Source: Escherichia phage UGJNEcP1 | Sequence record: OV754623 | Strand: one strand, 5' to 3' | DNA length: 64,000 nucleotides | Part shown: positions 6,799 to 58,694 of the stretch, one piece after another | Layout of the letters: every line of letters starts with the position of its first letter | Position numbering within the stretch: the stretch's first letter is position 1 | Made by a program: the position numbers and the translations under genes | The notes under the pieces: generated by a model | What the model was told of the DNA's origin: nothing | Database searches by the model: none | Seen by the model: only the letters and a program-made list of their open reading frames with translations

Positions 6799-6905
6799 TT
6801 TACCATACTCGTTTCAATAAGATTCACTATGCCGTTTACCATGTTATAAGTAAACATCGGATAATTGTATTGTACTACAACATAAGCGATAAGCAAAAGT
6901 TTCAT
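6795..6905 (-). CDS. small hydrophobic peptide (36 aa)
   Basis: ATG with GGAGAA Shine-Dalgarno just downstream of promoter 6925-6963; MKLLLIAYVVVQY...; ATGA overlap with next ORF. Confidence 0.35.
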   Translation of the reverse strand: MKLLLIAYVVVQYNYPMFTYNMVNGIVNLIETSMVK

Positions 6906-6924
6906 TTTGTTCTCCGTTTGTTTT

Positions 6925-6963
6925 GATAGGACTACTATAACATAGTCCTACCAAGATGTAAAC
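6925..6963 (-). promoter_or_regulatory. PeSL-type early promoter
   Basis: gataggactactataacatagtcctac cassette + GTTTAC. Confidence 0.6.
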
Positions 6964-7199
6964 TACCGATTGTGTTTTAAATGTTGATAAAGCTCTTCAA
7001 CTTGTTTAGGGTCCAAAACAATTAAGTCATTTTCTTGACGAAGATAAATCCATCCCTTATCCCCAGGGCCATTTTTACAAAACATCACCGTCGTCATATC
7101 GTCATCTTCAGCGCTTTCAGGTAAAAGTTCAAGTACACCGTCTTCAGATTTTCCAGTATAATCGTAAAGCATAATATCCTCACATAATCTCGTTAACAT
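6963..7199 (-). CDS. hypothetical protein (78 aa)
   Basis: ORF on coding strand, overlaps upstream gene end. Confidence 0.5.
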   Translation of the reverse strand: MLTRLCEDIMLYDYTGKSEDGVLELLPESAEDDDMTTVMFCKNGPGDKGWIYLRQENDLIVLDPKQVEELYQHLKHNR

Positions 7200-7359
7200 A
7201 CATTTGCAATTCGGTGTGGGCGTCAGCCATCTTTTTCATAGCTCTGTTAATGTCGATGTCTCCATCTTCGCAACCATGAGCATTTTCCCAATCAGATACC
7301 GCATTAGCGTACTCTTCAATCAAAAACATTAACTTAGAAATTTTTTCTTTACGTGTCAT
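7180..7359 (-). CDS. hypothetical small protein (~59 aa; start moved to MTRKEK)
   Basis: Promoter 7377-7416 lies inside the longer track ORF; GAGGAG Shine-Dalgarno precedes ATG at 7357-7359. Confidence 0.45.
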   Translation of the reverse strand: MTRKEKISKLMFLIEEYANAVSDWENAHGCEDGDIDINRAMKKMADAHTELQMYVNEIM

Positions 7360-7376
7360 AACGTTCTCCTCTAGTA

Positions 7377-7416
7377 AGTAAGGACTACTATAACACAACC
7401 TGAGGAGAAGTAAACT
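7377..7416 (-). promoter_or_regulatory. PeSL-type early promoter with SD-complementary spacer
   Basis: GTTTAC...TTATAGT; spacer CTCCTC complementary to downstream GAGGAG Shine-Dalgarno. Confidence 0.6.
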
Positions 7417-7426
7417 GCTAAATGCC

Positions 7427-7454
7427 AAAAAGCCCCAACCATAAGGAAGGGGCT
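7427..7454 (-). terminator. rho-independent terminator after rI
   Basis: AGCCCC...GGGGCT stem followed by TTTTTGG on minus strand. Confidence 0.6.
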
Positions 7455-7460
7455 AGTAAA

Positions 7461-7763
7461 TTAGATAGATGTAGGCTCTAATTTTATTTTCATGAACTCA
7501 GCAAATTGTCTGGCAGTTTTTATGCCTTGTTCATGACATTCAAATGCATCATCACAGGGGCTATTTTTGTAATGCTTTGCCATATACTTATAGAATTTTT
7601 CAGAATTCTCGACATTTTGAATTTCAAACAAAGTATATACGTTTTTAATCCCTGATTCCATAAAGTTATCAAAATATGGGTCGATATATGCAGTACCAAC
7701 GATAGGAGTTGTTGCTGCAAAAAACCCCAGCATCGCTATGACAGCTATCGCTCTTAAGGCCAT
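7461..7763 (-). CDS. rI: lysis-inhibition regulator rI (antiholin)
   Basis: N-terminal membrane anchor plus DPYFDNFMESGIKNVY and CDDAFEC segments matching T4 RI as recalled; sits next to tk as in T4. Confidence 0.8.
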   Translation of the reverse strand: MALRAIAVIAMLGFFAATTPIVGTAYIDPYFDNFMESGIKNVYTLFEIQNVENSEKFYKYMAKHYKNSPCDDAFECHEQGIKTARQFAEFMKIKLEPTSI

Positions 7764-7775
7764 ATAGGCCTCCTG

Positions 7776-7988
7776 TTAATTTTGGCCAGTATTTATTTTT
7801 CGCCTTTGGACGGCCTTAACATCTGTGAGGTATTTTTCCAGCTTGCGCTTGCGTGTATAATCAGCTTTAGAACCAGTTTGACGGATATCCTCGTTTAAAT
7901 GAGAAATAGAATGTCCTAATTCTCTTCGGATTTCATCCAATTGGGTTACAGTAAGATTACGAAGTTGTCTTTCGTTTAATTGCTGCAT
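7776..7988 (-). CDS. hypothetical protein (70 aa), rI-adjacent
   Basis: ORF between tk and rI. Confidence 0.5.
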
Positions 7989-8015
7989 ATATACCTCTTG
8001 GTTAGATATTAGTAT

Positions 8016-8597
8016 TTATAACAACCCTGTCAAATCATTCCAATGCTTCCGGCATAATGACACATATCTATCGGTATCACCAATTTCAATTTGACTGCCA
8101 TCTGTAATTGGAAGTCCGTCTTCCGTGACTCTAGCTACCATTGTGGCCTTTTTACCACAATGACAGACACCTTTAAGTTCAACAAGCTTATCGGCGATAG
8201 CCATTAATGCTTGAGAACCTTCAAATAGATTACCTTTAAAATCTGTTCGTAGTCCATATGCCATTACCGGCACATTGTATACGTCAACAATACGACTAAG
8301 TTGATACACCTTTTCAGTAGTTAAGAACTGAGCTTCGTCAACAAATACACAGTGAATATCCTTTTGTGCTGCAGCCCATTTATAGAATTCAAAGATATCC
8401 ATGTCTTTTGTAATTATATTGGCATCCTGACGAATACCAATACGAGAGACTATTTCACCTTTTGAATCACGAGTATCAATAGCCGGTTTAAGAACTAATA
8501 CACCCATGCCACGTTCTTTATAGTTATGTGCGGCAGTAAGTAATGAAGCAGACTTACCAGCGTTCATAGCGGCATAGGTAAAAATTAAACTAGCCAT
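8016..8597 (-). CDS. tk: thymidine kinase
   Basis: P-loop AMNAGKS, 193 aa, C-terminal Zn-ribbon Cys pairs (CHCGKK...C); strong recalled identity to T4 Tk. Confidence 0.9.
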   Translation of the reverse strand: MASLIFTYAAMNAGKSASLLTAAHNYKERGMGVLVLKPAIDTRDSKGEIVSRIGIRQDANIITKDMDIFEFYKWAAAQKDIHCVFVDEAQFLTTEKVYQLSRIVDVYNVPVMAYGLRTDFKGNLFEGSQALMAIADKLVELKGVCHCGKKATMVARVTEDGLPITDGSQIEIGDTDRYVSLCRKHWNDLTGLL

Positions 8598-8606
8598 AAG
8601 AGTCCC

Positions 8607-8789
8607 TTATAGTGAATTCACGTAGTCAATGAGTTCTTGTTCTTTCCTGTCAAATGATTCCATCAATGCTTGATATTCTTCATCTGTTAAAGGAGCATAT
8701 TCATCGTACGCATTGGTGGCTGCTTGCTCATCCAATAGGTCATGGATAAGTTCGAACAGTTTAGTTTTCTCTTCTTTAGTCAATTTCAT
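8607..8789 (-). CDS. hypothetical protein (60 aa)
   Basis: Small acidic ORF; ATGA overlap. Confidence 0.45.
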   Translation of the reverse strand: MKLTKEEKTKLFELIHDLLDEQAATNAYDEYAPLTDEEYQALMESFDRKEQELIDYVNSL

Positions 8790-9013
8790 TTAGGTTCACC
8801 TTCTTTAACGAAATCTGGGTAAGGGTAAAATCCTGAGTAAAACCCTTCACCTTTATGATTGCTACAACCTTTGTTCGAACAGTAACACCAATAATCAAAA
8901 TCACAAGCCATTTCGTCATTGCATAAAGCAAAAACTACAGGCCATTCGCATTTTTCGCATTTAGCACCTGTAAGAATTTTTGTTTGACTCATAGCCATGT
9001 CACCTTTAAGCAA
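8786..9013 (-). CDS. Cys-rich small protein (putative zinc-binding)
   Basis: CEKCEW...CNDEMAC...CYCSNKGC pattern. Confidence 0.5.
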   Translation of the reverse strand: MLKGDMAMSQTKILTGAKCEKCEWPVVFALCNDEMACDFDYWCYCSNKGCSNHKGEGFYSGFYPYPDFVKEGEPK

Positions 9014-9216
9014 TATTCTTCTACATGTTGTTTACGGCCTTTCTTATCAATAAAGGTATATTCAACGAATGTTCCGATGTAGTCTTTATCTACGTCATGT
9101 GGACTATTAATTGGACATTTGGTACGACAAATGCGTTCCCATTGACGAATAATTACTGCCTTATTCTTTGGATCATATGGATGTGGATAATGTATATTCA
9201 TAATAACGGTTCCCAA
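8989..9216 (-). CDS. hypothetical protein (75 aa)
   Basis: ORF on coding strand. Confidence 0.45.
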   Translation of the reverse strand: MGTVIMNIHYPHPYDPKNKAVIIRQWERICRTKCPINSPHDVDKDYIGTFVEYTFIDKKGRKQHVEEYCLKVTWL

Positions 9217-9695
9217 TCAACAATCACAATTTCCAGTTTAGTGGAATACGTATCTAAAATCTCTTCGATGACGTCCCAGTTTCCACCACCGATACCTGCA
9301 CCAATTCTTGGCATATAAATTACAGGCTTTGTTATCTTATTCTTTCCGAATTCATTTAATTCTGTTATACAATTCATTAAAGCAGAGTACTCAAAATTAG
9401 GTCCGGGCTCAAACTGCGTATAAAGATTAAAGCAATAAGCTTTATGGGTCTTAAAATATTTTTCATAAACCGAATAAGTCCCGAGTTTAGACTCGTCTCC
9501 GAATTCGGTTTGAAGTTTATCGGCTTCCAGAATTTTTGGATAAGCCTTTGCTAATTGTCCTGCCACACCGGCGCCCATTGTATGAAAACAATTACACCCA
9601 TGAGCAATATTATTACCTTTAGAAAACAGGGCGACAATATCGCCCTTGATATAGTTTTTAATCACTTGCTGCAAGTCCTCTAGTATAAGAGTCAA
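9198..9695 (-). CDS. macro-domain protein (ADP-ribose binding/processing fold)
   Basis: HGCNCFHTMGAGVAGQLAKAYP and IYMPRIGAGIGGGNW resemble the two glycine-rich loops of macro domains. Confidence 0.55.
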   Translation of the reverse strand: MTLILEDLQQVIKNYIKGDIVALFSKGNNIAHGCNCFHTMGAGVAGQLAKAYPKILEADKLQTEFGDESKLGTYSVYEKYFKTHKAYCFNLYTQFEPGPNFEYSALMNCITELNEFGKNKITKPVIYMPRIGAGIGGGNWDVIEEILDTYSTKLEIVIVDWEPLL

Positions 9696-10005
9696 CTAGA
9701 CGGTCCACCATAGAATTGCATGCTGCCTTATCTTTAGGTTCCGCCACCGAGCATTCTAATATTTGCCATTTTTTATAGTATCTTTTAATTAAGGTAGACG
9801 CCTTGAACCTACTAGACGCCCCATCTTTTTCTCCGTCTTTATACGCATATAACAATTTTTGTGAAAAATCTACTTTACACTCTTGACTTTTACCACAGTA
9901 ATCAGACGCCGTTCTGTTTGTATACTCCGTTACATCAGTATATGTAGTATTAGCAAGAGCGTTAAATGAAACCAAGCCAACTATTAAAGCCAACATTTTG
10001 GTCAT
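9658..10005 (-). CDS. secreted small protein (115 aa, signal peptide)
   Basis: MTKMLALIVGLVSFNALA leader. Confidence 0.5.
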   Translation of the reverse strand: MTKMLALIVGLVSFNALANTTYTDVTEYTNRTASDYCGKSQECKVDFSQKLLYAYKDGEKDGASSRFKASTLIKRYYKKWQILECSVAEPKDKAACNSMVDRLVDSYTRGLAASD

Positions 10006-10544
10006 TCTTTTATTTCCAGTAGTTTATTTGATTTAAGGTAATTAGCCTTTTCTAGGACTTCAGAAGCATATTTACTTCCAGCACTTGTCTTCCATCCCGC
10101 ATTATATGAGGATATAGCTTTTCTTATATCCCCGTTATGTATATTTAACCAATAAGAAAATTCGATATAAGCCCATCTGGCTGAATTAGACCGCTTAGAT
10201 AGCATTTTCTTAATTTGGGCATCAGTCATATTATAACCAAGCTGGTTAATTCTTGCCCTCATTGTTGGTAGATAATTTTGGAACATTCCATACGCATGGT
10301 GACCTTTCTTATCTTTAAGATTAATACCGGCAGATGATTCTTGCCATAGTATTGCGGCCATTATGTATCCAAGTCCTTTCTTATGCATATTTTCATGCGT
10401 TTTAAATTTTCCATCCTTAGAAAACTGTTCCCCAAACTGATAAGCATAATTCAAGTTATCGAGTTGGACATTACTAAAAGTATGCTCGGAGCTATGTGCT
10501 GATAATGAAAGAGCAAATAGACCAGCGAGTAGTGCTTTTCTCAT
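10002..10544 (-). CDS. secreted lytic transglycosylase-like protein (SLT-like)
   Basis: Signal peptide plus E-S...YGMFQ...YNAG spacing typical of SLT/lysozyme-like folds. Confidence 0.5.
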   Translation of the reverse strand: MRKALLAGLFALSLSAHSSEHTFSNVQLDNLNYAYQFGEQFSKDGKFKTHENMHKKGLGYIMAAILWQESSAGINLKDKKGHHAYGMFQNYLPTMRARINQLGYNMTDAQIKKMLSKRSNSARWAYIEFSYWLNIHNGDIRKAISSYNAGWKTSAGSKYASEVLEKANYLKSNKLLEIKE

Positions 10545-10552
10545 GTTTACCT

Positions 10553-11011
10553 CTAGATTTTAATCACTGCTTTAGAAGCTTTTCCTGGTAGTCGTTTATT
10601 GTTAATAATAGCCATTCTGCATTGAAGAGTCTTCATTTTGAATGCTGGATTTTCGCGACAAACTGTAAGTCCTAACCAAAGATTTCCATCAGTTATTTCT
10701 AAACGGCCTGGGCGATATTCGACACCTTCGACAAAATCTTCATCAACATCTGGACGTGCCGGCATTGATAAAAATTCTGCAACTTCTTTAACATGATTTT
10801 TTACTTTATGAAATAATTCAAAAACGTAATTCTCATCTATTTCTCTCTGGATGGCACGATCTAAGAGATGTTGAGAATACTTGATATGAAAGCCTGGTAG
10901 TCCAAGAGACTTTGCAGCATCTTTTATACTGGCATTTATTTTGCGGAACTCCGTTTCAAAGATTCGACGGAGTTTATTACGGCGGATAAAAACGTCTGAA
11001 TTGATAGTCAT
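10553..11011 (-). CDS. regB: RegB site-specific endoribonuclease
   Basis: 152 aa; MTINSDVFIRRNKLRR...GRLEITDGNLWLG...RLPGKASKAVIK matches T4 RegB as recalled. Confidence 0.8.
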   Translation of the reverse strand: MTINSDVFIRRNKLRRIFETEFRKINASIKDAAKSLGLPGFHIKYSQHLLDRAIQREIDENYVFELFHKVKNHVKEVAEFLSMPARPDVDEDFVEGVEYRPGRLEITDGNLWLGLTVCRENPAFKMKTLQCRMAIINNKRLPGKASKAVIKI

Positions 11012-11030
11012 TTTGATTTCTCCTCTAGTT

Positions 11031-11068
11031 GACAGGTCTATAGTAACACAACTAGAGGAGAAGTAAAC
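11031..11068 (-). promoter_or_regulatory. PeSL-type early promoter upstream of regB with SD-complementary spacer
   Basis: ACTAGAGGAG at 11051-11060 is the inverted repeat of the regB ribosome-binding region at 11021-11030. Confidence 0.6.
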
Positions 11069-11367
11069 TACTCTTTGAAAGGAATTAACTTTTTAACTGC
11101 TTTAGATACTTCGTCACGAACCTGGTGGAAGTTCTTGAGCTGTTCAAGGCGTTGTTCGTAATACGCAATCTCATCTTCTTCAAGACAATCGTCAGCGTCT
11201 TCTTTCAGATATGCCTTGTACTCATTAAAGAGGGCCCATAGGCGATTCTCAAAGTCATCAAGGCTTTGAATTTTCTTGTGCTTCGGAACAAGGCCAAAAG
11301 GATTGCTTTCAGTTATGCGTCGAGATGCTTCATAATGAGTTCCAAAGCCTGATAGGATTTGAGCCAT
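11068..11367 (-). CDS. hypothetical protein (~100 aa)
   Basis: ORF; start placed at MAQIL to give ATGA-type junction. Confidence 0.45.
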
Positions 11368-11612
11368 TAGTATTTTTCCTCTGGTTGAAATACCGCACGA
11401 CAAGCCCACATACTAGCTTCCTTTAGGCGTTCTTTAGCACAGTTCAATTGGGACAAAGCCGTCAGAGCTTCAGGAGTATTTGCTGATAATGCTTCTTCTG
11501 CCAGGGCGTCTAGAATAAGTCCTAAACGAACTTCGGCATCTTTAATAGCGTTCACTTTACCGATTTTATCATCGGTATGCGGCTTGTAGCCTTTAATATC
11601 TTCAATCGACAT
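11367..11612 (-). CDS. hypothetical protein (~81 aa)
   Basis: Internal Met start ([10 protein letters not shown]) avoids overlap with upstream ORF. Confidence 0.4.
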
Positions 11613-11826
11613 AAGGAATTTCCTCATCAGTGGCAAGGTCATATTCGACCAATTGGATAGGCTCATTAATACCATATCCACGTACAGTGATATCAGTTGT
11701 CGGATAGTTTCCAGTAATATCACCCATTCTAAATGCTTCAATGAATGATTGCTCGCCTGAGCAACTAAACCAGGCGGCAAAACATTTTAAAACATCTTCA
11801 GACCCTTCTATAATCAATTTAGCCAT
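11602..11826 (-). CDS. hypothetical protein (74 aa)
   Basis: ORF with ATGA overlap to the GrcA-like gene. Confidence 0.45.
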   Translation of the reverse strand: MAKLIIEGSEDVLKCFAAWFSCSGEQSFIEAFRMGDITGNYPTTDITVRGYGINEPIQLVEYDLATDEEIPYVD

Positions 11827-12188
11827 TATAGACTCTCAGTAAAGGTACGAGCGATAACGTCGCGCTGCTGTTCCGGAGTCAGAGAGTTAAAGCGAACTGC
11901 ATAACCGGATACACGGATGGTCAGCTGCGGATATTTTTCTGGATGCTTAACTGCATCTTCCAGAGTTTCGCGACGCAGAACGTTAACGTTCAGGTGTTGA
12001 CCACCTTCAATTTTAACTTTAGGTTGATGTTCAATTTCAATTTCACGGGCATTCAAACCGTAGAAAATTTCCGGGTCTACAATAGCGTCTTCTTTAAAAG
12101 TCTTAGAGACAATAATCCGGGCTTGAGTACCGTCTTCAAAATAAATAGTGCCTTTGTGTTCACCTTCAAGAATTTGATATGCTTTCAT
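11826..12188 (-). CDS. autonomous glycyl-radical cofactor (GrcA/YfiD-like)
   Basis: C-terminal [25 protein letters not shown] glycyl-radical motif; 3' half of the gene is markedly GC-richer than phage background. Confidence 0.8.
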
Positions 12189-12194
12189 ATAACC

Positions 12195-12503
12195 TCAATT
12201 AGAAAATAAATTTATCCAAGATTTTTCTTTAATCAAAAATGGGTCGGAATTAAACGCCATTAAACTTTGAGTGATTAATCCTTTAAATGGCCCATCAATA
12301 AATTCCATTTTGAAATGTGGAATACTAGTCATCAACCGTGCATTAGGAGCAGTACAAAGAACCTGCTGCCCTGCAAACGGTCCTTTAGTCAAACGATAAC
12401 GTTTAGGTTTAAAATGATAAATCTCGTAATTTTCTACAAGAGCCCTTTTATTGCATACTGGGCTGTTATAACAATACTCAAAAACTTCAATAGTGGTCAT
12501 CAT
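12195..12503 (-). CDS. hypothetical protein (~102 aa)
   Basis: ATG overlapping upstream stop (ATGATGA at 12497-12503). Confidence 0.45.
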   Translation of the reverse strand: MMTTIEVFEYCYNSPVCNKRALVENYEIYHFKPKRYRLTKGPFAGQQVLCTAPNARLMTSIPHFKMEFIDGPFKGLITQSLMAFNSDPFLIKEKSWINLFSN

Positions 12504-13039
12504 TGCATTCCAATCACAAAAAATTGAGGACGAGCAATACCACCGATGCAATATTTGCTTTTGCAACAGTGTTGGACTGTTTTAATATGGATGTCGTAAA
12601 TCTTATCCATATCAGGAGCTTTAATAGGCTCGTCAATTATGTACAGAATACGAGAAAGCGTTAATCCACGGAATTTATGTCCTTCATTACCAATAAAACT
12701 ACGGACAGAATCAGTAAATAAACGGAATCTAATATCATCGCTAGAATAACGAGAAAATTCTTTTTTAATGTTGCCAACAGAAATTTTAGCATAAGCTGAA
12801 GTATTAGAAAGAACAATAACTGTTCCACCATCATACAGCCAATTAACAGCAAAATTAGTTACTGCGGTCGATTTACCAGATTGCCTGCCGCCGTCTAAAC
12901 GAAGTGTACAGTACTGCTTGAGTACGTCTTCAAATGGTGGGGCATAACCGTTCTTACAAATTTCTTCTACTCTAGCATCAGAATGGTGTGTAAAAGCATT
13001 CATCAGGGATAGATAAGGTCCGGTTAAAAATGTTCTCAT
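12500..13039 (-). CDS. small P-loop NTPase (Walker A GGRQSGKST, Walker B ILYIIDEP)
   Basis: Motifs read from translation; preceded by an unusual GC-rich ~170-nt leader. Confidence 0.55.
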   Translation of the reverse strand: MRTFLTGPYLSLMNAFTHHSDARVEEICKNGYAPPFEDVLKQYCTLRLDGGRQSGKSTAVTNFAVNWLYDGGTVIVLSNTSAYAKISVGNIKKEFSRYSSDDIRFRLFTDSVRSFIGNEGHKFRGLTLSRILYIIDEPIKAPDMDKIYDIHIKTVQHCCKSKYCIGGIARPQFFVIGMQ

Positions 13040-13212
13040 TTAGTTTCTCTTTTAGGTTGGGCCATTCCGTGGCACATGTTAGGTCCTTCGACTCGCTATG
13101 TAAACCCATTACCGCACTTGGGCTCGACCTTATTACAGGTTGGAAAAGGTACATCACTCAGAGGACTCGACGTTCATGAGGAGAGGTTGCGTTTCCCTTT
13201 ATTAGGCAAGAA

Positions 13213-13542
13213 TTATACTCTAGGCTTTTGAGCTTGTTTGGTATTGGATTCCCATGCAGCTTTGGTAATTTTGTTAGCGGCATAACCAAAGGCACTAGAT
13301 AGAACACCTTTAGAGTTGAATACATCCAATCCAATAAGTACACCGGCTGTGTTAAATTTAGGAGCAAAGTACGCATTAGTTTTAGAAAGAGCTTTTTTCA
13401 ATTCAGGGTCTTGAACCAAACCATCAAAAACGCCTTTACTATTTACTTTATATGTTACTTTGGGATTTTTACCTTCTTCGATAGCAGCTTTCTGTTCCGC
13501 AGATAATGTAACTTCAGTGATAAACTCTTGATACGTTTTCAT
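13213..13542 (-). CDS. internal-protein-like (capsid-targeting leader MKTYQEFITE)
   Basis: N-terminus matches the T4 internal-protein capsid targeting sequence ending in the prohead-protease site I/L-x-E. Confidence 0.7.
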   Translation of the reverse strand: MKTYQEFITEVTLSAEQKAAIEEGKNPKVTYKVNSKGVFDGLVQDPELKKALSKTNAYFAPKFNTAGVLIGLDVFNSKGVLSSAFGYAANKITKAAWESNTKQAQKPRV

Positions 13543-13567
13543 TTTGTTCCTATTGTTTTAATTTATG

Positions 13568-13882
13568 TTATTCTTTAGGGAAGTTTTTAGAGTATGCATC
13601 ATAAAGTTTATTACCGATGCGACGGAAGACTTTAGCTGCAAAACGGTTTTCAGGGTTTTTAATCATGATTTGCATCATGTAAGTTCCTGCATCCGAAAGA
13701 GCTTCTTCATAGTACCCATTAATTTCTTTAAGGGTCCTACGTTTACCGCCAGGACCATCAACAGTAATTTTCCATTTACCTGTAGAAGTGCGGCTCGGTG
13801 GCTCAACTTGTTCAATCCAAATATAACCGCCTTCAACGCGTTGGTTGGCGGATTCTGCAATAAATTCTTTATACGTTTTCAT
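13568..13882 (-). CDS. internal-protein-like (capsid-targeting leader MKTYKEFIAE)
   Basis: Same N-terminal leader; promoter 13912-13941 upstream. Confidence 0.7.
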   Translation of the reverse strand: MKTYKEFIAESANQRVEGGYIWIEQVEPPSRTSTGKWKITVDGPGGKRRTLKEINGYYEEALSDAGTYMMQIMIKNPENRFAAKVFRRIGNKLYDAYSKNFPKE

Positions 13883-13911
13883 TTTTGTTTCCTTGTTTTT
13901 TTGATAGAGTA

Positions 13912-13941
13912 ATTATACCATATTAATACTTAAGCGTAAAC
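13912..13941 (-). promoter_or_regulatory. early promoter GTTTAC-18-TATAAT
   Basis: Consensus hexamers upstream of internal-protein-like gene. Confidence 0.6.
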
Positions 13942-13944
13942 AAT

Positions 13945-14061
13945 TTAAGCTTTACCGCCAGAAATAATTCCGAAGTTGTTAAAATCGTATCCAATATCGT
14001 CAACATCTACTTTAGGACCTTTGGCATCTGCTTCAATGATAAATTCTTGATACATTTTCAT
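13945..14061 (-). CDS. mini internal-protein-like peptide (38 aa; leader MKMYQEFIIE)
   Basis: ATG with AAGGAAAA Shine-Dalgarno; leader followed by 28-aa Gly-rich tail. Confidence 0.45.
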   Translation of the reverse strand: MKMYQEFIIEADAKGPKVDVDDIGYDFNNFGIISGGKA

Positions 14062-14067
14062 TTTTCC

Positions 14068-14481
14068 TTAGTAAATTGATTTACCATAGTATTTGTACCA
14101 AGTCGGACGTTGAGCAATTTTTTCATCTAAGCGTGCTTGACTTATCGCAATGGACGCTTCGGACGGGACATAATTATTACGAAATTCGGCAGGGATGTCG
14201 GAAATATCCTGGACTGTCGTGTCCTTGATTTTGAAACCACGTTTCAAACATTCAGCGATTAGCTCGATTTGTCGTAAACGTAAAAATTCGAGTTTGTCGT
14301 AAAAGAATGTTACGTGACCTGTGCCTAAGATAAATGTTGGAGAGATTTTAAAATCCTTTACACGTTTACCGTTTTGAACATGTTTACGGACTGCACCGAA
14401 TACACGAGGTAATTCACGATACTCAGCCATAAGATGTTGGTCGGTCAGTTCAGAAACAAGTGTTAAATTGATACGGGTCAT
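14068..14481 (-). CDS. denV: endonuclease V (pyrimidine-dimer DNA glycosylase)
   Basis: [12 protein letters not shown]...[17 protein letters not shown]...PTWYKYYGK closely matches T4 DenV as recalled. Confidence 0.9.
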
Positions 14482-14500
14482 AATTTCCTCCAAGTAGTTG

Positions 14501-14538
14501 ATGAATGTATAGTATCAAAACCCTTGGAGGAAGTAAAC
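14501..14538 (-). promoter_or_regulatory. PeSL-type early promoter upstream of denV with SD-complementary spacer
   Basis: CTTGGAGG at 14524-14531 complementary to the denV Shine-Dalgarno region CCTCCAAG at 14488-14495. Confidence 0.6.
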
Positions 14539-14539
14539 A

Positions 14540-14836
14540 CTATTTTTCTGAAGCGCCTGAAATATATTTTTCAAGACGTTGTTTCATCAGCGAACCGTTC
14601 TTAGCGATTTCTTCCGGTTTATCGCACATACGTAACAAGGCTTCAAGCTTAGCGATATCGCTGGTACGTTCAAATTTGCGAGTATCTATCTTACTAGCAA
14701 GTTCAGAAATACGTGCTAATAGACTTTCAGCTTCAACCAAAGCTGCACCTAGCTTAGTCGCAAATGTGTCAGTAGCTTCGTTAAGAATAGATTCTGATAA
14801 AAATTCACTATATGTTTTCATATATACGCTTTCCAA
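14540..14836 (-). CDS. internal protein (IPII/IPIII position; leader [10 protein letters not shown])
   Basis: Capsid-targeting leader; located between denV and e where T4 has ipII/ipIII. Confidence 0.7.
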
Positions 14837-15306
14837 GTTCCTGTTTTAAATGTTGAGATTACGCGTTTCGCGCGATTAGGTGTCTGACGATACCATTTAG
14901 ATTGGGCTAGATTTACTGCCGCTTCATCCCAACGTTTCTGTTGAAGCATACGAAGAGAATTAGTAAAACCGGCTACGCCTGATACACCCATTTGGAAGAC
15001 CATATTGACCAATGCACACCGACGAACTGCATCTAAAGAATCGTATACCGGTTTAAGTTTAGCATTACCCAAGATTCCACGAACGGCTTTATCAACGTCT
15101 TCATTAAATAGCTTTTCAGCCTCATCAAGGGTAATTGTACCGTTGCATTTACGACCGATCATTCTGTCAAGTTCAGCTTTAGCTACGGCTAAAGACGGGT
15201 TCTTTGTTACCAAATGGCCTATGCCAATCGTCCAAAAGCCTTCAGTGTCTTTGTATAAAGTCAGTCTAAGACCTTCGTCATTACGAAGCATTTCAAATAT
15301 ATTCAT
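14818..15306 (-). CDS. e: lysozyme (endolysin), T4 e type
   Basis: MNIFEMLR...DEGLRL..YKDTEG..TIGIGHL...[13 protein letters not shown], 162 aa; start placed at MNIFEML. Confidence 0.95.
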
Positions 15307-15331
15307 AATACCTCCCACGTTTATAGGAGGT
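15304..15331 (-). promoter_or_regulatory. hairpin sequestering the lysozyme e ribosome-binding site
   Basis: ACCTCC...GGAGGT inverted repeat spans the GGAGG Shine-Dalgarno and ATG of e. Confidence 0.5.
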
Positions 15332-15340
15332 ATTTATTAC

Positions 15341-15799
15341 TTATAGGAGGGTAGTGAGCACCTTATATAATGATTTGCCCATTACATATTCCCATTGAGA
15401 AGGTTTAATTAAAGCGAATGCATCAAATTCAGGAATCTGTCGTCCGTCTGGGAATGTATGATAGGAATTACAAACACTGTTTCTGAATTGCTCGTGCTCT
15501 ACAGGGATGGTATATTGGAACAGATGAATATTCTTATTGTCTGAGTAATGATGTTCACCTAGGTCTTTCAGGAAGGCAGGGTCATATTGTGTAAACCCAG
15601 TTTCTTCTTCACATTCGCGAATAGCGGCTTCAATAGGAGATTCACCAGGTTCGACACGTCCTTTAGGAATATCCCACCGATGAGCTAATGCACCTTTAGG
15701 ACGAGAACCAGTTACACGCCCCATGAATAATTCTTTATCTTCGGTAAGGAAAATAATACCGGCTGATAGTTCTTTCACTTTATTTTTCTTACTCATCAT
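15341..15799 (-). CDS. nudE: Nudix hydrolase
   Basis: Nudix box GRVEPGESPIEAAIRECEEETG; position adjacent to e. Confidence 0.85.
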   Translation of the reverse strand: MMSKKNKVKELSAGIIFLTEDKELFMGRVTGSRPKGALAHRWDIPKGRVEPGESPIEAAIRECEEETGFTQYDPAFLKDLGEHHYSDNKNIHLFQYTIPVEHEQFRNSVCNSYHTFPDGRQIPEFDAFALIKPSQWEYVMGKSLYKVLTTLL

Positions 15800-29218: not shown

Positions 29219-29671
29219 TTACCCCTTGTATCCGAGTTTTCTAAGACCATCTTCGGTTAGAACTCGAAATTTTATATTTCTCTTTTCAGCAACAGCTGAG
29301 GCAGCTTTCCATTTGTCACAGTTCACAGACCACACGTATATTTCATTCATATAACGTTTCTTAGCCGCAGTTGTAAGATTCACCGGTTTAATAGGTGGTT
29401 GAGTTTCTTTCTTTGGTTTTATTTCTACAAAAAACTCTTGTCCTGATGCATCTTTCATCCATATGTCCATATAGTATCGACGTTTCTTACCTTCAGCATT
29501 ACAAAAATATGGAATTACTGCTGTTTCACTACCCCATGCAATAATTTCTGGATTTTTATCCAGCCATTCGAAAAAGAATTTTTCCCAGTTTGAACGATAC
29601 GTTATTTTGGTATGGTCTCCACGGTATTTTTTTAAATTTTTTGGGACCCATTTACCAGAGTAGGCCATGTT
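29219..29671 (-). CDS. 4: head completion protein (gp4)
   Basis: Start at [11 protein letters not shown] (matches recalled T4 gp4 N-terminus) rather than the longer track ORF. Confidence 0.8.
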
Positions 29672-29679
29672 GTCCTCCT

Positions 29680-29687
29680 TATAAATA
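29680..29687 (+). promoter_or_regulatory. late promoter TATAAATA (gene 53)
   Basis: Exact octamer ~45 nt upstream of gene 53. Confidence 0.6.
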
Positions 29688-29729
29688 GTATTATTATTTA
29701 TACCAATTTCATATTGGAAGGAGACTATC

Positions 29730-30305
29730 TTGTTATTTACATTCTTCGACCCAATAGGATATAGTGCTAAAACAGTTGATAAGAATGCACCTACTATTCC
29801 TATGACAGACATATTTCGTAACTATAAAGAGTACTTTAAGCGTGTTGCTGCCAATTATAGATTACGTTCTTATTATATTAAAGGCTCTCCGCGTCCTGAA
29901 GAATTAGCAAACATAATTTATGGAAACCCACAATTATACTGGGTTCTTTTGATGTGTAATGATAACTATGATCCGTATTACGGTTGGATTACATCTCAGG
30001 AAGCAGCGTATCAAGCTTCTATTCAGAAATATGCAAATGCCGGCGGCGACCAAATTCTTTACCATATTAATGAAAATCGTGAGAAATTTTACAATTTAGT
30101 TTCATATCCGGACGAGCCTTTAGTGTGGTATGATAAAGGTGATGAAGCTCGTAAGTATCCGCAATATAAAGGACCTTTAGCTGCAGTAGATACTTATGAA
30201 GCGGCAGTATTAGATAATGAAAAACTTCGTAAAATAAAAATTGTTGCAAAAGAAGATATAAACTCGTTTATCACAGATTTGATTCGTGAGATGGAGATTG
30301 CATAA
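29730..30305 (+). CDS. 53: baseplate wedge protein gp53
   Basis: MLFTFFDP... matches T4 gp53; apparent TTG start 7 nt after GGAGG; late promoter TATAAATA at 29680-29687. Confidence 0.85.
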   Translation: MLFTFFDPIGYSAKTVDKNAPTIPMTDIFRNYKEYFKRVAANYRLRSYYIKGSPRPEELANIIYGNPQLYWVLLMCNDNYDPYYGWITSQEAAYQASIQKYANAGGDQILYHINENREKFYNLVSYPDEPLVWYDKGDEARKYPQYKGPLAAVDTYEAAVLDNEKLRKIKIVAKEDINSFITDLIREMEIA

Positions 30306-58358: not shown

Positions 58359-58620
58359 GTGCAATTTCGATGTAAGTTTTCAAAATATTTTGCCAATTAG
58401 GCATACCTTCTTGGACATATGCCGGAGAACCGTCTTTGTTTTTGAATGACGCAAGTTTATCAGTGGCCCAATAACCTTTAGCTCGAGCTTCAGAATCAAC
58501 TTTCATCCATACTTTGTTGAAGGCATTACCATTAACTTTTGCACCATATTTTTCTACTAACTTAACTGCTTCAGCTTCCAGAACTTTTAAAGTATCTCGT
58601 AAGAAACGTGCTTTAGTCAT
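58351..58620 (-). CDS. hypothetical protein (89 aa) inserted between genes 23 and 24
   Basis: Minus-strand ORF with its own early-type promoter/leader cassette (58621-58680). Confidence 0.55.
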   Translation of the reverse strand: MTKARFLRDTLKVLEAEAVKLVEKYGAKVNGNAFNKVWMKVDSEARAKGYWATDKLASFKNKDGSPAYVQEGMPNWQNILKTYIEIAQK

Positions 58621-58641
58621 TTTGTTTACTCCTCTGTAGTT

Positions 58642-58680
58642 GATAAGTTTATAGTATCACATACCAAATACGTTGTAAAC
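58642..58680 (-). promoter_or_regulatory. PeSL-type early promoter/leader cassette (copy B) inside the late region
   Basis: GTTTAC -35; leader identical to copy at 22381-22420. Confidence 0.6.
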
Positions 58681-58686
58681 AATCTT

Positions 58687-58694
58687 TATAAATA
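58687..58694 (+). promoter_or_regulatory. late promoter TATAAATA (gene 24)
   Basis: Exact octamer ~28 nt upstream of gene 24. Confidence 0.65.

Follow-up and report, generated by a model that had tools for sequence, protein, structure and literature searches.

Promoter spacers complementary to the ribosome-binding sites of regB and denV: a candidate device for restricting translation to early transcripts in a T4-type phage

The 64,000-nucleotide (nt) stretch of Escherichia phage UGJNEcP1 analysed here (sequence record OV754623; hereafter the window) belongs to a Mosigvirus, an RB69-like T4-type phage, and carries regB, the gene for a site-specific RNA endonuclease, and denV, the gene for endonuclease V. 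Over positions 7000-15000, which hold both genes, the sequence matches Escherichia phage UGJNEcP2 at 100% identity, and many Mosigvirus (RB69/JS09-like) genomes share ~98% identity with it. The genes around regB and denV all lie on the minus strand, in the same order as in T4, and the accessory region consists mainly of small open reading frames (ORFs) of unknown function. RegB (10553-11011, ATG at 11011-11009) has 152 amino acids and shares 76% identity with T4 RegB, and DenV (14068-14481, ATG at 14481-14479) has 137 amino acids and shares 91% identity with T4 DenV. Unless stated otherwise, the UGJNEcP1 features located below are also on the minus strand.

Each of the two genes is preceded by a putative early promoter. 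The regB promoter, a pattern match at 11040-11068, has the -35 box GTTTAC (11068-11063), a 17-nt spacer (11062-11046) and the -10 box TACTAT (11045-11040). Promoter activity in UGJNEcP1 is presumed on the strength of the consensus and of the T4 orthologue of this promoter, which has been described as a typical early promoter (PMC3014915). The denV promoter (14509-14538) has the same two hexamers, GTTTAC at 14538-14533 and TACTAT at 14514-14509, separated by an 18-nt spacer (14532-14515). Within the regB spacer, and upstream of any start from this promoter, lies TTCTCCTCTAGTTG (11049-11062), which is complementary over 14 base pairs (bp) to CAACTAGAGGAGAA (11018-11031), a segment that includes the GGAG Shine-Dalgarno (SD) sequence of regB. 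Similarly, TTCCTCCAAG (14523-14532) in the denV spacer is complementary over 10 bp to CTTGGAGGAA (14485-14494), which includes the denV SD. A sequence-only reading of this DNA had claimed exact complementarity of this kind in three promoter copies, and direct inspection bore this out; the third, of 8 bp, precedes an ORF of 59 amino acids. In all three cassettes the 5' arm, or anti-SD, begins immediately 3' of the -35 hexamer. We surveyed 145 candidate starts in the window for perfect helices that join the ribosome-binding site (RBS) to the 63 nt further upstream; those of 10 bp or more were observed twice, compared to 0.1 expected, and these were exactly regB and denV, the two longest RBS-to-upstream helices found.

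Folding of the predicted RNAs separated transcripts that enter from upstream from those that begin at the gene's own promoter. The isolated hairpins had energies of -21.4 kcal/mol (z -5.2) at regB and -18.9 kcal/mol (z -5.5) at denV. In read-through RNA, folded with 40 nt of upstream RNA included, the SD-sequestering hairpin was the minimum-energy fold at both genes, and the mean probability that the SD is unpaired was 0.19 for regB and 0.12 for denV. The corresponding values were 0.52 and 0.64 for short RNAs that start 7 nt after the -10 box and represent the products of the own promoters. Thus, the comparison of 5' ends, which the sequence-only reading had suggested as a check, came out in its favour, with the SD freer in own-promoter RNA at regB and denV. 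A terminator scan found none between the upstream ORF and the regB or denV promoter, and at both genes the upstream stop codon adjoins the -35 box; at denV this is the stop codon of the internal-head-protein gene (14540-14821), which lies directly upstream. On both counts, read-through into regB and denV is expected.

The same arrangement is present in T4 with different sequences. The T4 regB arms, TTTTCCTCTTGAC and GTTAAGAGGAGAA, form 13 bp that include two G-U pairs, and the T4 denV arms are TCTCCTGTAG and CTACAGGAGA. We compared 39 regB and 34 T4-like denV loci from IMG/VR, comprising 31 and 27 distinct sequences, respectively. Approximately 10 classes of arms occur among the 39 regB loci, including ATCTCCTTTTAGT/ACTAAAAGGAGAT, ATCCTCATTTG/CAAATGAGGAT, TTTCTCCTCTTTATG/CATAAAGAGGAGAAA and CCTCCTTT/AAAGGAGG. 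A duplex of -15 kcal/mol or lower between promoter and leader was found in 28 of the 31 distinct regB sequences and in 16 of the 27 distinct denV sequences, and cognate pairs were on average more stable than non-cognate ones (-18.4 versus -12.1 kcal/mol for regB; -13.1 versus -9.9 kcal/mol for denV). In an alignment anchored on the SD/anti-SD core, changes on both sides were present in 12 of 15 pairs (52 cells), mainly in columns outside the SD core. The covariation score of 0.311, for sequences that are related by descent, was reached by none of 500 shuffles (0.150 +/- 0.018), and slid partners scored 0.06-0.11. Anchoring biases the four core columns, and we therefore relied on the flanking columns and the slid controls. 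MAFFT and RNAalifold, applied to the unanchored regB upstream sequences, returned no consensus structure, since the register of the arms differs from lineage to lineage. Complementarity is thus conserved with compensatory change in arms whose sequences differ.

The position of the anti-SD and the gene that it precedes also vary among these phages. In nine denV loci (L052, L059-L062, L064-L067) an anti-SD (GTCCTCC, GTCTTCC or AGCCTT) lies directly 3' of the -10 box and pairs with GGAGGAC or GGAGGCT; judging from this position, it is probably still upstream of the transcription start. A cassette of the form GTTTACATCTCCTGTAG...CTACAGGAGA stands before regB in L022-L027 and L040 and before denV in T4, which suggests that whole promoter-RBS cassettes move between genes, as has been proposed for the promoter early stem-loops (PeSLs) of T4-type phages.

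We next consider how common such promoters are. The -35 box and spacer of each promoter were scored against the last 18 nt before the ATG and the ATG itself. A duplex of -14 kcal/mol or lower was obtained for 3 of 16 promoters in the window compared to 2.9% of non-cognate pairs, and for 6 of 31 promoters in the whole T4 genome compared to 1.5% of non-cognate pairs. The six T4 promoters precede ndd.4, alc, alt.-3, denV, regB and nrdC.8. Those other than regB and denV are at T4 positions 166807 (ndd.4), 136336 (alc), 123093 (alt.-3) and 53943 (nrdC.8), to which 8218 (motB.2) may possibly be added, with duplexes of -15 to -22 kcal/mol. The cassettes of alc and alt.-3 are almost identical to each other. 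The promoter/RBS duplex energies have a bimodal distribution, indicating that anti-SD promoters form a separate class. By this sequence measure, about one early promoter in five belongs to the class, a minority that is common to T4 and not peculiar to UGJNEcP1. The sequence-only reading had described the logic of the T4 lysozyme gene as apparently generalised in this phage. This did not hold: only the 3 of 16 promoters pair with the RBS, eight others leave the SD free, and in T4 the class is equally frequent.

The remaining cassettes provide the background against which the regB and denV elements are to be seen. The pattern GTTTAC-N16-19-TANNNT has 18 matches in the 64-kb window, 16 of them on the minus strand, compared to 4.06 +/- 2.31 on both strands of shuffled sequences. 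When one mismatch in the -35 box was tolerated and an SD, an ATG and an ORF were required downstream, 17 minus-strand cassettes were found, plus two near the window ends (130 and 61534). The figure of at least 18 copies given by the sequence-only reading is therefore apt for the window but not for the interval 7361-14538 to which it was assigned, where there are only four (7415, 11068, 13941 and 14538). Its inverted-repeat motif (reverse complement TGTTATAGTAGNCCTATC) has eight copies at up to three mismatches, all on the minus strand, compared to 0.2 expected.

In the commoner type of cassette, exemplified at 6934-6963, the spacer sequence GGTAGGACT pairs with AGTCCTATC just 3' of the -10 box and the SD is free. 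Other members are at 2791, 17564, 17833, 19128, 21942, 25886 and 26216; across the type, the spacer contains GATAGGACT or AAGGTCT, and its partner in the pairing, AGTCCTATC or AGACCT, occupies positions +1 to +10 counted from the -10 box. Folding indicated that this hairpin leaves SD accessibility unchanged. At two sites, pairing reaches the SD or its vicinity. At 2735-2810 a long hairpin covers the SD in part (unpaired probability 0.30). At 58620-58688, TTGTTTAC, which comprises the -35 box of a promoter at 58680 and the two bases 5' of it, complements over 8 bp GTAAACAA, located between the SD and the ATG of the gene downstream; the pairing is in the minimum-energy fold and has a modest effect on the SD (unpaired probability 0.46 versus 0.67).

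These cassettes fit the PeSL label that the sequence-only reading had given them. Like the PeSLs described by Arbiol et al. (2010) and Comeau et al. (2014), they are repeated intergenic units (17 here) with an AT-rich upstream segment (52-88% A+T in the 25 nt 5' of the promoters), a strong sigma-70-like promoter, a stem-loop that lies between the two promoter boxes or overlaps them and, at the 3' end, an SD and the ATG of a mostly small gene; the eight common-type cassettes, as well as those of regB and denV, have hairpins of 9-14 bp that extend across the -10 box. Unlike the G(n)/C(n) stems of RB49 and phi1 PeSLs, the stems in the window are of the GATAGGACT/AGTCCTATC type or contain an anti-SD. 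In the PeSL papers the stems are taken for terminators or attenuators and for sites of recombination; pairing between stem and RBS is unmentioned, and the words "ribosome" and "translation" do not occur (PMC2839356, PMC4122927).

Sequestration of an RBS on upstream transcripts is a familiar device in T4. Promoter-in-hairpin control has been established experimentally for e, soc, 49 and I-TevI (PMC3014915, PMC2988022), and reviews of T4 add I-TevII and I-TevIII, segB and Aeh1 mobE to the RBS-hairpin group. The T4 e hairpin is reported to lower lysozyme synthesis ~100-fold (PMC3014915). The window contains the corresponding element, our positive control, at 15307-15334, where AATACCTCCTAT and GTGGGAGGTATT form a hairpin of -16.3 kcal/mol with late-promoter-like TATAAAC/TATAAGT boxes, TATAAAC being in and next to the loop; the start codon of e is the ATG at 15306, not the GTG at 15318 given by the ORF tool. 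The regB and denV hairpins (see above) are more stable than the e hairpins of the window and of T4 (-13.3 kcal/mol). As in e, soc, 49 and I-TevI, a helix would hide the SD and/or AUG on distal transcripts, and the proximal transcript would lack the 5' arm; for regB and denV, unlike the third copy, the SD is within a stable helix of the predicted upstream transcripts, and transcripts of the putative own promoters would begin beyond the 5' arm. In those four genes, however, a late (gp55) promoter occupies the internal position and translation is delayed until late. The 2010 reviews name no other than late genes for such control (PMC2988022, PMC3014915), and one of them states that all genes regulated by an RBS hairpin and an internal promoter are late genes (PMC2988022). 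The late-promoter consensus TATAAATA does not describe the regB and denV promoters, which are of the sigma-70 early type and serve early genes. With the anti-SD in the spacer of an early promoter, the expected effect is reversed, to a restriction to the immediate-early period. Elsewhere in the window, at 29669-29730, TATAAATA is found before gene 4 (head closure, 29219-29668), between GTCTCCTT and AAGGAGGAC, which form 8 bp with one G-U pair, and TATAAAT pairs with an ATTTATA that adjoins the SD; from its sequence, gene 4 may be a further case of a late promoter in a hairpin.

A second known system acts on regB itself. RegB cleaves the GGAG of its own SD, an autoregulation conserved among T4-related phages (PMC3014915). 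The same SD of the same gene is targeted there by a nuclease that acts in trans on the open SD, whereas the hairpin, a cis element, would affect read-through RNA only and would hide the GGAG from RegB. The T4 GenBank records carry no regulatory or stem-loop annotation in the regB/denV region, and our literature search returned no description of early-promoter anti-SD hairpins, although older literature may hold them. Valerie et al. (1986, Nucleic Acids Res 14:8637) reportedly remarked on potential stem-loops before T4 ipIII, ipII, denV and orf61.9 (now regB) and are said to have offered neither a promoter-versus-read-through logic nor comparative evidence; their stem-loops are presumably the same T4 inverted repeats as those at regB and denV. 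The sequence feature is thus old and present in T4, and the early-promoter logic and the covariation are absent from the literature searched.

We propose, at odds that we place slightly above even, that in the regB/denV subclass the anti-SD in the spacer silences the gene on read-through RNA and leaves own-promoter RNA translatable. In this subclass, the first 10-14 nt of the spacer that separates the -35 box from the -10 box carry the complement of the SD region plus 4-8 flanking bases. In the model, RNA from an upstream promoter would contain both arms, and the resulting helix of 10-14 bp would bury the RBS and prevent translation. RNA from the own promoter would begin downstream of the -10 box, lack the 5' arm and have a free RBS. 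Within a few minutes, early promoters are turned off (PMC3014915), and synthesis of RegB and DenV would be tied to the short period in which their own sigma-70 early promoters fire and be insulated from later read-through. In the case of denV, the gene would be silent on RNA from upstream, including e transcripts and internal-head-protein transcripts, for example the late ones. In addition, an untranslated gene may invite Rho-dependent polarity, as an untranslated cistron exposes the RNA to Rho (PMC2988021); such exposure would reconcile the hairpin with the PeSL "attenuator" idea. Finally, RegB is inhibited by secondary structure, and the regB helix would shield the GGAG from RegB cleavage on long RNAs.

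Several observations weigh against this proposal, beginning with the third cassette. Its promoter (7387-7415; GTTTAC at 7415-7410, spacer 7409-7393, TATAGT at 7392-7387) has TTCTCCTC (7409-7402) in the spacer, which forms 8 bp with GAGGAGAA (7364-7371), a segment that includes the SD of the 59-amino-acid ORF (7180-7359, ATG at 7359), a relative of MobD.2a/MobD.3. Helices of exactly 8 bp were observed twice among the 145 starts compared to 1.55 expected, the hairpin (-13.0 kcal/mol, z -1.45) is not significant, and the long RNA has a minimum-energy fold that lacks the pairing. The sequence-only claim that read-through sequesters the RBS was accordingly supported for regB and denV and not for this copy. 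Moreover, a hairpin resembling an intrinsic terminator (7427-7454; AGCCCC, 12 nt, GGGGCT and then TTTT, GGGGCTTTTT being its 3' part) lies directly upstream, between rI and the cassette, and forms in the minimum-energy fold. It is kept in relatives, where the loop changes from TTAT to GAAA and the stem stays intact, and by its sequence it should limit read-through into the third cassette. The cassettes at 7415 and 11068 share the same 5' half, GTTTACTTCTCCTC...GTTGTGTTA, and the third copy appears to be partly paralogous to the regB cassette. Close relatives of the ORF were found only in Mosigviruses, where both arms are invariant, and the T4-group homologue (47-51% identity, in the mobD.2a/mobD.3 region) has no promoter ahead of it.

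The other points concern regB and denV. A spacer complement is absent from regB loci L030-32 and L035-36 and from 11 of the 27 distinct denV sequences, which indicates that it is dispensable. The helices contain five G-U and three A-C pairs among their non-Watson-Crick pairs, a ratio that does not separate selection on RNA from selection on DNA. An equally good hairpin that leaves out the SD occurs in 8 of the 17 cassettes, so that a stem-loop spanning the -10 box may serve some general function to which inclusion of the SD is secondary. Lastly, ribosomes that terminate on the upstream ORF, whose stop codon precedes the 5' arm by 5-13 nt, might open part of the helix.

These points lead to the alternatives. 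If the stem-loop had a role shared by all cassettes, be it to attenuate or terminate transcription from upstream or to stabilise and process the 3' ends of upstream mRNAs, its 3' arm at regB and denV might have come to lie on the SD by happenstance. The eight other cassettes, whose 9-12-bp hairpins cross the -10 box without involving the SD, fit this explanation, as do the terminator or attenuator function proposed in the PeSL papers, a report that one RB49 stem-loop reduced lacZ strongly (PMC2839356) and regB loci L015-19 and L037-38, in which the main stem is of the common type and the SD pairs outside it over 5 bp only. We nevertheless judge it unlikely: the regB 3' arm keeps to the SD through ~10 arm sequences without drifting to the +1 region, where it lies in other cassettes, and the bimodal duplex energies set these promoters apart as a class. 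Nor does the sequence favour termination by the three hairpins: no U-tract follows them and the scan was empty at all three sites. It is also quite unlikely, in our estimation, that an RNA hairpin is formed for another main purpose, either shielding of the GGAG from RegB or translational coupling to the upstream ORF. The location of the upstream stop codons, in nearly all loci 0-8 nt ahead of the -35 box, is in keeping with such a role. Shielding, however, cannot explain denV and was discarded as its main role there, because the GGAG of T4 denV resists RegB in vivo through its 3' sequence and not through structure (PMC1702504). As for coupling, a terminating ribosome would, from the size of its footprint, extend no further than the first few nt of the 10-14-bp helix, and the T4 e hairpin begins similarly near an upstream stop codon yet represses as strongly as noted above.

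Selection might instead act on the DNA, with the inverted repeat serving as a recombination substrate for PeSL shuffling, a cruciform or an element of promoter architecture, and with SD complementarity reflecting how cassettes are assembled. PeSLs are documented recombination sites (PMC2839356), the 5' half common to the cassettes at 7415 and 11068 suggests exchange, the TCTCCTGTAG/CTACAGGAGA cassette precedes both T4 denV and the regB of L022-27, and the small excess of G-U over A-C pairs does not discriminate against it. Recombination requires homology between cassettes, though, and not self-complementarity within them; the arms diverge widely among lineages but stay complementary in each cassette; and T4 regB retains two G-U pairs, which are A-C mismatches on the other strand. 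We regard a DNA-level explanation as improbable. Chance complementarity between pyrimidine-rich spacers and purine-rich SDs, which we hold to be very improbable as a general account, would be compatible with the 8-bp copy (7402-7409 with 7364-7371), a length within expectation, and may account for this copy. For regB and denV it is refuted by the perfect 14- and 10-bp helices, z-scores of about -5 and covariation across phages.

The remaining genes of the region follow the T4 order. Between denV and regB are small ORFs and then vs.8 to vs.3; downstream of regB are vs.1, vs and tk.4 to tk (8016-8597); and rI.1 and rI lie between tk and the 59-amino-acid ORF. Between a small ORF and vs.8 is a 181-nt stretch of higher G+C content without an ORF (13036-13216). 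Similar stretches occur in >1000 phage records, in some of which they are annotated as coding, and its predicted structure is not unusual (z +1.7) and has no Rfam match. T4 vs.8 is 40 codons longer, and the stretch may be the decayed 5' part of this gene. An Rfam scan of positions 6800-15600 at E-values up to 1 returned no match.

We tentatively suggest, as a possibility that falls somewhat short of an even chance, that anti-SD spacers are a conserved "promoter-autonomy" device in about one-fifth of T4-type early promoters: the genes would be translated from their own immediate-early promoter only and be silent on the plentiful read-through, middle and late RNAs that run across them, regB would be hidden from RegB on those RNAs, and the whole would amount to a general level of temporal control, so far uncatalogued, in the best-studied phage family. 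T4 serves as a reference in the study of gene regulation, and its reviews treat the combination of an RBS hairpin and an internal promoter as a property of late genes. If true, the model would explain how individual early genes, that of the tightly controlled nuclease RegB among them, are kept to the first minutes of infection although transcription runs across them continuously, and it would tie the widespread PeSL cassettes to translation control. It would also help to account for discrepancies between transcript and protein timing in T4 omics data. At ~60 nt the device is compact and could serve synthetic biology wherever a gene is to answer to one of several promoters.

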